This document shows, piece after piece, positions 6,515-8,449 of a stretch of DNA of 32,798 bases. Location: contig CAZJJF010000004.1 of the NCBI GenBank assembly GCA_964546245.1, positions 1-32,798 on the forward strand. The letters are read 5' to 3'. The notes under the pieces are model-generated. The model saw nothing but the letters and a program-made list of their open reading frames with translations. It did no database searches and had not been told where the DNA came from. A program made the position numbers and the translations under genes. This DNA comes from an uncultured Anaerolineales bacterium (GTDB lineage Bacteria > Chloroflexota > Anaerolineae > Epilineales > JAHCIE01). Numbering within the stretch: position 1 is the stretch's first letter; every line of letters begins with the position of its first letter.

Positions 6515-8449
6515 CTATTGCCCCGGCGCCAGATGATTGCTCGCCAGCAGCGGCAGGTACTGGTAGAACATCGGCTTGGGCGTCGCGGTCGCCGTGGGTG
6601 TATCTGTCGCGGTCGGCGTGGCTGTTGCCGTGGGCGTGGCCGTCGCCGTGGCGGTCGGTGTGGCCGTCGGCGTCTCGGTAGCCGTGGGCGTGGCCGTCGC
6701 CGTGGGCGCGGGGCCGAGGCAGGCGTTGCCGCTGAAGTTGACCTCGAACGGCGTGTACTGGGTCTGCAGCAAGACGCTCTGGGTCACGGTCGCCCGCCCG
6801 TCGGCCGTCGCCGAGATGGTGTAGCTCTGGGCCGGCAGCGGCAGTTGCCCCGTCTGGTAGAAGCCGCTGATGTTGGTGAAGGAACGTAGCGACGTGCCGA
6901 TGACCCGCACCTCGGCGTTGGCGATGGGCGCGCCGCTCTGGCAATCCAGGACGTAGCCCTGCACCTGCACGAAGGGCGGGCCGGACGGCGTCGCCGTGGC
7001 CGTCGGTGTCGCTGTATCGGCCGGCGTGGCCGTCACTGTCGGCGTCGGCGGCACATACACCACGGCGCGGCCCCAGATGTCGGCGCCCGTGGCCTCTGTG
7101 GAGGCCGTCCAGAACGTCAACACCTGGCCGCTGGTCGAATTGTAGGCCAGCGAGGGGCCATCGGGTTCCTGCTCGTAGCCGGCTGGGCCGGGGTTGGCGG
7201 CCGTGGCGAGGATGACGGGCTGGGTGATGGGTGAGCCAACGCCGCTCCAGCCAATGCCGCGATACTCCTTCGCGGCCGTGTACCACGCCAGGAAGAGCTC
7301 ACCGGCCTGGGCCGTGTAGGTCAGGGCCGGCCGCGTACCGGTCATGGTGGACACGTCGGCAATAAGGCTGTCGCCCACACCCACAGGGTCGCCGTCCAGT
7401 TCGATGCGCCGCCCCCAAATGGACGAGCCGCCGGGCGAACGCTGGTCCTGCCAGGCCACCAGCCATTCGCGCCGCCCGCCTTCGCGCCGCCCGCCATGGA
7501 AGGCGGCGACAGGCGCCTTCTGCGCACCCGGCCGCGCCTCGCTCAGGATGTGGGGCGGGTCCTGGAGCGTGCCCAGGCCCGACACCACCCGCCCCCAGGT
7601 CTTGTAATCCAGGTCGAGCGGCTCGCCGCCGAGGTCGGTCGCGTTTGTCCACTTGGACCACACCACCAGGAAGCTGTTGCTCAGGTCGTCCGACCAGGCG
7701 ATGTCCGGCGTCAGCTCGTCCTGGAAACTGGCGGCCGGACCGCCCGGTGGCAGACCCAGCCGTAGAACGATGCCGCTCGGCGCGCCGTTGCTGTCGATAA
7801 AGCGGCCGTAGACGTGGTTGACCACGCCCGACGCCTGGGTGAAGACGACCAGATAGGCGTTCTGCCGCGCCATGGGGTCCTGGCTCCCCGCGTTGACCGG
7901 GCTGAAAGCGATGCGCGGCGATTGATTGCCGGTGCCTTCGTCGTCGTCGGTGATGCGAATGTCATCCATGCCCAGCAGCGCCCCATCGGCGGCGATGCGG
8001 CGCGCGCGGATATTCTCCGGCTCGCGGGGCACGACCTGACTGTGCAGCCAGATCACGTAATACTCATTGAGTTCCGAATTGTAGACGACCTCAGGACTCT
8101 TGTTTTGTTCGCTGTTTCGGGAGGCAGCGGCAATGACAAAAGCGTCGCCCGCTGGCTGGCCGTCCGGCCCCACCAGCCGACCATAGATGTTGGCGCGGCT
8201 ACGGAGGTCGTCCTTGCTCTCCCATACAGCCAGGAACTGGTTCGTCGCTGGATTGTAGGCCGCCGACGAGCCGAACTCGGCCAGAACGTCGTCGGTAATC
8301 TGAATCGGCGGGCCGTCCGTCCGCCAGTAGGCCGGCGTCAGCAGGCCGCCCTGCGCCGCCGCCTCCAGCGCCCCCGACCCCAAGAGAACCGCCAACGCTA
8401 TCAGACACGCGCCGCCGATGGCGGCCATCAGGTAGTGTTTCACAGTCAC
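6515..8449 (-). CDS. Secreted surface protein: signal/anchor, seven-repeat beta-propeller-like region, PT linker, CarboxypepD_reg-like Ig domain, PT linker, short C-terminal tail
   Basis: 646-aa ORF in the track, starting at GTG 8455. GGAGG abuts that GTG, so GTG 8449 (6-nt spacing) is the more likely start. The N-terminal hydrophobic segment is AAIGGACLIALAVLLGSGALEAAAQ. A ~55-aa unit repeats seven times (P.vAyn....fLVvW....diyGR.v..dG.p.G). VQGYVLDCQSGAPIANAEVRVIG is carboxypeptidase-regulatory-like. The tail is MFYQYLPLLASNHLAPGQ. Confidence 0.8.
   Translation of the reverse strand: MTVKHYLMAAIGGACLIALAVLLGSGALEAAAQGGLLTPAYWRTDGPPIQITDDVLAEFGSSAAYNPATNQFLAVWESKDDLRSRANIYGRLVGPDGQPAGDAFVIAAASRNSEQNKSPEVVYNSELNEYYVIWLHSQVVPREPENIRARRIAADGALLGMDDIRITDDDEGTGNQSPRIAFSPVNAGSQDPMARQNAYLVVFTQASGVVNHVYGRFIDSNGAPSGIVLRLGLPPGGPAASFQDELTPDIAWSDDLSNSFLVVWSKWTNATDLGGEPLDLDYKTWGRVVSGLGTLQDPPHILSEARPGAQKAPVAAFHGGRREGGRREWLVAWQDQRSPGGSSIWGRRIELDGDPVGVGDSLIADVSTMTGTRPALTYTAQAGELFLAWYTAAKEYRGIGWSGVGSPITQPVILATAANPGPAGYEQEPDGPSLAYNSTSGQVLTFWTASTEATGADIWGRAVVYVPPTPTVTATPADTATPTATATPSGPPFVQVQGYVLDCQSGAPIANAEVRVIGTSLRSFTNISGFYQTGQLPLPAQSYTISATADGRATVTQSVLLQTQYTPFEVNFSGNACLGPAPTATATPTATETPTATPTATATATPTATATPTATDTPTATATPKPMFYQYLPLLASNHLAPGQ
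6575..6712 (-). repeat. Coding tandem repeat: (A/T)TPT Pro/Thr linker, ~12-nt units
   Basis: Encodes PAPTATATPTATETPTATPTATATATPTATATPTATDTPTATATPKP. The plus strand shows reiterated ggcgtggccgtcgccgtg-type units. Confidence 0.9.
6983..7051 (-). repeat. Coding Pro/Thr linker (first copy, shorter)
   Basis: Encodes PPTPTVTATPADTATPTATATPS, between the propeller repeats and the CarboxypepD_reg-like domain. Confidence 0.85.

Follow-up and report, generated by a model that had tools for sequence, protein, structure and literature searches.

Tails of two exported proteins from an uncultured Anaerolineales bacterium are probably divergent copies of the YLP-box and are independent of the neighbouring exosortase

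The signals of exosortase substrates are tripartite, consisting of a signature motif, a transmembrane helix and an Arg/Lys cluster (Haft preprint, 10.1101/2023.06.07.544157). A different kind of terminal element, the YLP-box, is curated in NCBIfam as two very short models: NF050076 (sort_motif_YLP), with 11 positions and a cut-off of 15, and NF053834 (ultrashort_CTERM), with 10 positions and a cut-off of 10. Each bears the title "YLP-box putative sorting motif-containing protein". Pfam lacks a corresponding model, and literature searches on the motif, on the YLP-box and on Chloroflexota sorting signals found nothing relevant. Here we describe the tails of two exported proteins encoded in a 32,798-nucleotide stretch of DNA from an uncultured Anaerolineales bacterium (contig CAZJJF010000004.1 of assembly GCA_964546245.1), referred to as the window. 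It is contig C4 of a 4.24-Mb draft genome with 66% G+C and 79% completeness. One of the two genes adjoins an exosortase gene, and a sequence-only reading of the window had proposed that the shared tail is a candidate sorting signal of a new type, tied to that exosortase. The best explanation, to which we assign a probability of about 0.7, is that both tails are divergent, sub-threshold copies of the YLP-box, a tag that does not depend on the exosortase and that would keep its carriers at the cell surface.

The first protein, 646 amino acids (aa) long, is encoded on the minus strand at 6515-8455, with AAGGAGG upstream of a cluster of GTG start codons. Its open reading frame (ORF) specifies a signal peptide, a repeat region, a CarboxypepD_reg domain (PF13620, residues 497-566 by Pfam), a Pro/Thr-rich linker and a YLP-box tail that ends ...TPTATATPKPMFYQYLPLLASNHLAPGQ. 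The linker, 45 residues long as read from the translation (6578-6712, minus strand), lies between the globular part and the tag, which bears out the placement after a PT spacer described earlier. Beyond the linker the tail has 21 residues (6518-6580); the range originally given, 6518-6574, covers the last 19 of them. The divergent core, MFYQYLPLLAS, is at 6539-6571 on the minus strand and is matched at 6542-6571 (13.9 bits) by A1, a 12-column tail profile trained on 20 instances from this genome. Nine more residues (NHLAPGQ...) follow the core up to the stop codon at 6515-6517. The second protein is a 679-aa exoprotein with prenyltransferase/squalene-cyclase repeats (PF00432, PF13243 and PF13249) encoded on the plus strand at 14267-16306, its start being uncertain. 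It ends ...IAFTLVRIFLPLVSH, and its very C-terminus is the divergent box VRIFLPLVSH (16274-16303, plus strand; A1 match at 16271-16303, 13.5 bits), which is of canonical length and has His in place of the canonical Arg/Lys.

Both proteins have a hydrophobic, signal-like N-terminal segment, as had been noted. In the 679-aa protein this segment, LISFFFALVAVASLAIPAEAQS, is encoded at 14474-14539, and the only common start codons of the ORF are TTG 14267 and GTG 14504. A start at the former would place a 69-residue leader rich in Arg, His and Trp before the segment, and the latter falls within the segment; a rare start codon may be used.

The tag recurs in this genome. In a crude proteome of 3465 ORFs called by codon-position G+C, with motif counts taken on proteins with a complete 3' end, [FY]LP[LIV][LIV] occurs 35 times, 13 of them within the last 25 residues. 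An even spread would give about 2.6 such C-terminal copies, and residue shuffles gave 1.5. The concern that so short a motif might recur by chance is thus answered, and the observation of a shared tail on two unrelated secreted proteins stands. The codons for the conserved residues vary among the copies (CTG/CTC/CTT, CCG/CCC/CCA/CCT and TAC/TAT); the conservation is therefore at the level of the peptide, and a DNA repeat as the source of the tails is excluded. At E <= 10, profile A1 found 26 places in the genome, at least 24 of them terminal tags, and added four terminal copies, on C327, C643, C146 and C54 (C designates contigs of this genome).

At least 24 proteins of this genome are tagged; in 18 the tag is C-terminal, and in 6 it comes right behind the signal peptide. 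By Pfam they are unrelated: among them are a P-domain-containing S8 subtilase, a C25-like peptidase, and proteins with cohesin, Reg_prop, PSII_BNR, MAM-like, CarboxypepD_reg and prenyltransferase-repeat domains, and the carriers on C65 and C178 are subtilase-like by eye, from their catalytic motifs. Enrichment among signal-peptide proteins, one of the checks suggested for the tail, is strong: by a simple, crude hydropathy rule, a signal-peptide-like N-terminus is present in 16 of 21 carriers vs 12.7% of other proteins (odds ratio 22, p = 7e-11). The arrangement of a linker followed by the tag is also seen in the C146 protein and in a related genome (G010). Two tagged genes adjoin each other on C69, at 2-4045 and 4163-4855; the product of the first exceeds 1347 aa and contains an extended PT/TN linker region, and that of the second is a cohesin-domain protein of 230 aa. 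The carrier on C129 is cohesin-like by eye only, Pfam giving only CarboxypepD_reg. The tagged C25-like peptidase (C64:11529-13895) is 788 aa long, and in relatives the open frames that contain its homologues span 1400-3500 aa, so that the C64 protein may be either fragmentary or a shortened version.

The identity of the tag was recognised by scanning NCBIfam with a permissive threshold. The 679-aa tail scores 12.4 bits on NF050076, under the cut-off of 15; the 646-aa tail matches neither NF050076 nor NF053834 even at the permissive threshold. Tails of relatives pass, for example a C-terminal ..VPSRVYLPLVSR at 19.2 bits and a post-signal TFRVYLPLVAR at 18.3 bits, and the C81, C327 and C325 tails of this genome pass NF053834. 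Ten more tails were tested, eight of them encoded in this genome and the other two belonging to orthologues of the 646-aa protein. The three that contain LPLI or LPLV were the only ones detected, and all passed NF053834; six YLPLL variants and one orthologue tail with YLPHL were undetected by both models. The form used in this genus, YLPLL, frequently followed by extra residues, mostly escapes the curated models. The likeness to the curated element lies in the same core, [YF]-L-P-L-[VIL]-x-[RK] preceded by R-x, in the same placement (extreme C-terminus or post-signal) and in the occurrence, within the same phylum, on several unrelated exported proteins of one genome. The window tails themselves are C-terminal, have no transmembrane helix after the box, and belong to a Chloroflexota genome in which several unrelated exported proteins are tagged. 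The differences are that the window tails are under the cut-offs, that the genus favours YLPLL, and that it often has 2-15 trailing residues where canonical copies stop at Arg. The tag is therefore a genuine, recurrent element of unrelated exported proteins, for which a sorting or anchoring role is plausible; the claim of a new type fails, as the element is already modelled in NCBIfam.

The YLP-box is widespread in the phylum, NF050076 being above its cut-off in at least 110 of 401 sampled genomes, with the consensus P-[YH]-R-[VIL]-[YF]-L-P-L-[VIL]-x-[RK]. Placement was read for the 30 best matches in six closed or near-closed genomes without an exosortase: 18 proteins end 0-1 residue after ..YLPLVxR, nine boxes follow a signal peptide, and three lie inside the protein, where two domains meet. 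Nearer relatives (G047, G010, G049, G054 and G093) show these three placements as well, with the consensus P-[YH]-R-[VIL]-Y-L-P-L-[VI]-x-[RK]. Internal boxes at domain borders were seen at L002, L003 and L006 (all G047) and at L055, L062 and L071; those of G047 are in three near-identical YD/RHS-like repeat proteins (..PPGPYRVYLPLVAKSRTVRCLD..), and one internal copy follows a cupredoxin-like domain. The tails of both window proteins are conserved in orthologues across genera. Four orthologues of the 646-aa protein in family f1, with 38-81% body identity and variable linkers, retain its tail; they end ..YQYLPLLMRNPPSPER, ..HRVYLPHLARAWAAATPAP, ..YRVYLPHLAQ.. and ..YYVYLPHLAQ...

The family of the 679-aa protein provides a comparison of another kind. 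Its last 268 residues were searched against 35 relatives and the ends of the matched proteins were read. All nine best f1 matches (genera g1 and g2), the f2 homologue (G010) and a paralogue end in a YLP-box, with tails such as ..LRLYLPLVGRS.., ..LRVFLPLVLYRH and ..LRVYLPLIMRSMTTNLRD; two of the ten f1/f2 homologues pass the curated cut-offs, G010 with 15.3 and 13.6 bits and G004 with 12.7 bits (NF053834). The f5 homologues (G019, G015 and G021) end instead in LP[AT]TGG followed by a hydrophobic helix and a basic tail, the G019 tail passing the LPXTG model TIGR01167 (17.6 vs 15.9 bits), and the G031 homologue ends in a helix and RRRT. The YLP-box, the LPXTG sortase signal and a membrane anchor thus share one position in this family, the pattern expected if all three retain the protein at the surface, which suggests that the tag has such a role.

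The tie to the exosortase was examined by comparing, in 101 relatives, the tag count (A1, E <= 1) with the presence of an exosortase. The association is weak overall (odds ratio 2.2, p = 0.12), and among the 66 relatives outside the order the odds ratio is 0.25 (p = 0.26). As a positive control, PEP-CTERM (TIGR02595 at E <= 0.05) vs exosortase gave an odds ratio of 21 (p = 1e-8), and one of 66 outside the order. Tag-rich genomes without an exosortase include G047, a single closed 3.3-Mb contig (10 tag matches), G010 (13), G043 (9), G049 (9) and G075 (7); exosortase genomes with zero or one tag match include G020, G030, G039, G074 and a dozen others. Of the 45 genomes in the phylum sample that have five or more tag matches, 39 lack an exosortase. 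The co-occurrence called for in the sequence-only reading is thus not found, the motif being present equally in genomes that lack the exosortase, and the tie of the tail to its neighbour falls away: the tag is independent of the exosortase.

The neighbouring gene (5563-6492, minus strand, likely start ATG 6393) encodes a genuine exosortase: it matches PF09721 with 167.5 bits and TIGR02602 with 148.8 bits against a cut-off of 105.55; it is the only exosortase in the genome and fits no named subtype, the best being XrtA at 164.5 bits against a cut-off of 208. It is followed by an EpsI-family exosortase partner (4766-5569, minus strand; PF11984, and TIGR02914 at 43.2 bits vs a cut-off of 42.8) and, downstream of EpsI, by a bPH_5 membrane protein (3884-4762, minus strand; PF10882, 62.1 bits). 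The exosortase-EpsI pair is present in all 20 loci of relatives that were read, and the bPH_5 protein follows EpsI in nine of them, six from f1 and three from f3. The gene upstream of the exosortase varies; it encodes a member of the 646-aa family, a PEP-CTERM protein or, in f3, ilvE, which directly precedes the exosortase. Homologues of the 646-aa protein hold the exosortase-adjacent position in f1 (38-81% identity) and in f5 (24-26% identity). The f1 orthologues keep the tag; the f5 homologues, which are preceded by a PEP-CTERM protein, end ..GCYDLILDP and have none. Because these homologues adjoin the exosortase with or without the tag, the adjacency is a trait of the protein family rather than of the tag. 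About 200 genes were inspected around the 20 loci and about 0.5% of genes are tagged, so that about one tagged neighbour is expected by chance; an unrelated 1233-aa protein upstream of the exosortase in G044 ends ..EVYLPLIRKE.

The substrates expected of such an exosortase are present. Beside the orthologous exosortase in G019, G017 and G039 a PEP-CTERM variant is encoded, with ..(V/I)PEA(S/N)T, a Gly/Ala-rich helix and RRR, and in G012 a ..VPELTP.. protein occupies the same position; the G019 tail passes TIGR02595 and PF07589. A profile of these relatives' tails found an 849-aa Reg_prop protein in the source genome (C339:85-2634, plus strand) that ends ..PEIPEASTILLLGSGLAGLLGYLRYRIRRQRP and passes TIGR02595 and PF07589. 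A second, contig-edge fragment (C502:83-151, plus strand) ends ..PVPEPGTWALMALGLGCVGLLRRRVRS and passes TIGR02595 (29.8 bits) as well as the PEPxxWA-CTERM model NF035944 (35.7 vs 35). The accession of the latter adjoins that of the XrtV model NF035943, for which the cut-off is 313 bits and the window exosortase reaches only 110. The PEP-CTERM proteins had escaped an initial hydropathy filter for tails with a helix and basic residues, since Gly/Ala-rich helices such as theirs receive low scores. The exosortase/EpsI/bPH operon serves conventional PEP-CTERM proteins and is not the reader of the YLP-box.

Four other explanations of the tails were weighed. A new sorting signal recognised and cleaved by the adjacent exosortase is hardly credible. 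As in PEP-CTERM/exosortase (XrtA-type) systems, a short terminal motif stands on exported proteins, often after a Pro/Thr linker as is common for sorting signals, and an exosortase/EpsI pair adjoins one of the two tagged genes, the 646-aa gene lying immediately upstream of the exosortase with its adjacency kept in f1; the G044 protein ends in a box at the same place, and a weakly positive association is seen across the phylum (odds ratio 2.7, p = 0.05). The YLP-box differs from those signals in having no transmembrane helix and no basic or Arg cluster, as had been noted for both window tails, in which only 2 (679-aa) and 9 (646-aa) residues follow the motif and the tripartite design is absent. 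Unlike C339 and C502, the genuine PEP-CTERM proteins of this genome, the window tails have no match to PEP-CTERM models; those canonical substrates exist separately and track the exosortase. The box is also N-terminal, about 30% of tags being post-signal peptide, and it shows no exosortase co-occurrence: 39 of 45 tag-rich genomes, and the closed G047, have no exosortase, many exosortase genomes are tag-free, and the f5 homologues of the 646-aa protein adjoin the exosortase untagged. A degenerate sortase substrate, LPxxx for LPXTG, handled by one of the housekeeping sortases of the class is also very unlikely. Sortases are found in 99 of the 101 relatives and in three copies in the source genome (e.g. 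C162:1132-1551), the box contains L-P, and it replaces LPXTG at the same position in the 679-aa homologues, which would fit an equivalent role in surface retention. The box differs from LPXTG in having no Thr-Gly and no transmembrane helix or basic tail to hold a substrate at the membrane, and in being independent of orientation, its N-terminal and internal placements being unfit for sortase processing. The window tails do not match TIGR01167 and are unlike the genuine LPXTG-like tails of this genome. Tag-free genomes have sortases too, so that the sortase profile carries no signal on the tag, and normal LPXTG-type signals coexist in the same genome, with LPTTG, LPSTG, LPPTG or MPPTG followed by a helix and a basic tail on C164, C123, C281, C38 and C492.

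Less improbable, yet still unlikely, is that the box is a cleavage or maturation site at which an extracytoplasmic protease cuts at or after the conserved Arg/Lys; the cut would free N-terminally tagged proteins from their signal-anchor region, and a C-terminal box would designate its carrier as a target of that enzyme. It would account for the 18 of 18 canonical C-terminal copies in exosortase-less genomes that end 0-1 residue past Arg/Lys, for N-terminal copies 5-45 residues beyond the hydrophobic segment, for internal copies at domain borders (L002, L055, L062 and L071), and for the several carriers that are proteases with pro-regions. For most copies, which are C-terminal, a cut after what is already the last residue would be pointless; the replacement of the box by LPXTG signals or membrane anchors in homologues points to anchoring; and no dedicated protease co-occurs. 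The C25/PorU-like peptidase, itself tagged on C64, was tried as the processing enzyme and rejected; it is absent from the tag-rich genomes G047, G049, G038 and G075. Finally, the window tails could be functionless look-alikes of a motif that is real elsewhere, both being under the curated cut-offs and scoring only 13.5-13.9 bits on A1 (E of about 0.5-0.7 per genome). This is very doubtful, as the 646-aa tail is kept in four orthologues (38-81% identity) despite the variable linker, and nine f1 orthologues and the f2 homologue of the 679-aa protein are all YLP-box-ended, two of the ten passing cut-offs.

The preferred reading, a YLP-box that retains exported proteins at the surface, leads to a proposed mechanism. 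The short, exposed peptide may be bound, or possibly modified, outside the membrane by a partner, either a receptor or an enzyme, and its carrier would thereby be retained on the cell surface. The box would function at either terminus of the mature protein, in many cases spaced from the fold by a Pro/Thr linker. Given this freedom of placement, the linker and the lack of a membrane helix, the partner is unlikely to be a transpeptidase embedded in the membrane, as sortases and exosortases are. Several points weigh against this reading. The surface-retention part is drawn from comparison, that is, from the placement of the tag at either end and from its exchange for an LPXTG signal or membrane anchor. 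Both window tails score under the cut-offs of the curated models, their membership resting on the genome-trained profile, the orthologues and the context, and the 646-aa tail has Ala-Ser for the consensus x-Arg, plus nine trailing residues. No receptor or enzyme for the tag was found by comparing neighbours or with C25-like peptidase and sortase profiles; among the genes that surround the 24 carriers of this genome no family recurs apart from three ubiquitous response regulators. Tagged genes also adjoin exosortase loci more than once, in the 646-aa family and with the 1233-aa protein of G044, and a loose link is possible. More broadly, and only tentatively, at somewhat less than even odds, we propose that the YLP-box is an envelope-retention signal without a membrane span that works at either end; that its reader would be unrelated to sortases, exosortases, rhombosortases and myxosortases; that it may be evolutionarily interchangeable with LPXTG signals and membrane anchors; and that the YLPLL form of this genus, with its trailing residues, is missed by current models.

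For this lineage, the suggestive adjacency to the exosortase is a coincidence of locus membership, and one candidate machinery for the tag is removed. The motif itself is already curated in NCBIfam, and its finding here is a rediscovery. The exchange of YLP-box, LPXTG signal and membrane anchor within one protein family provides comparative evidence that would support surface retention. Furthermore, the curated models miss the YLPLL variants of the lineage, so that annotation pipelines under-count its tagged proteins.

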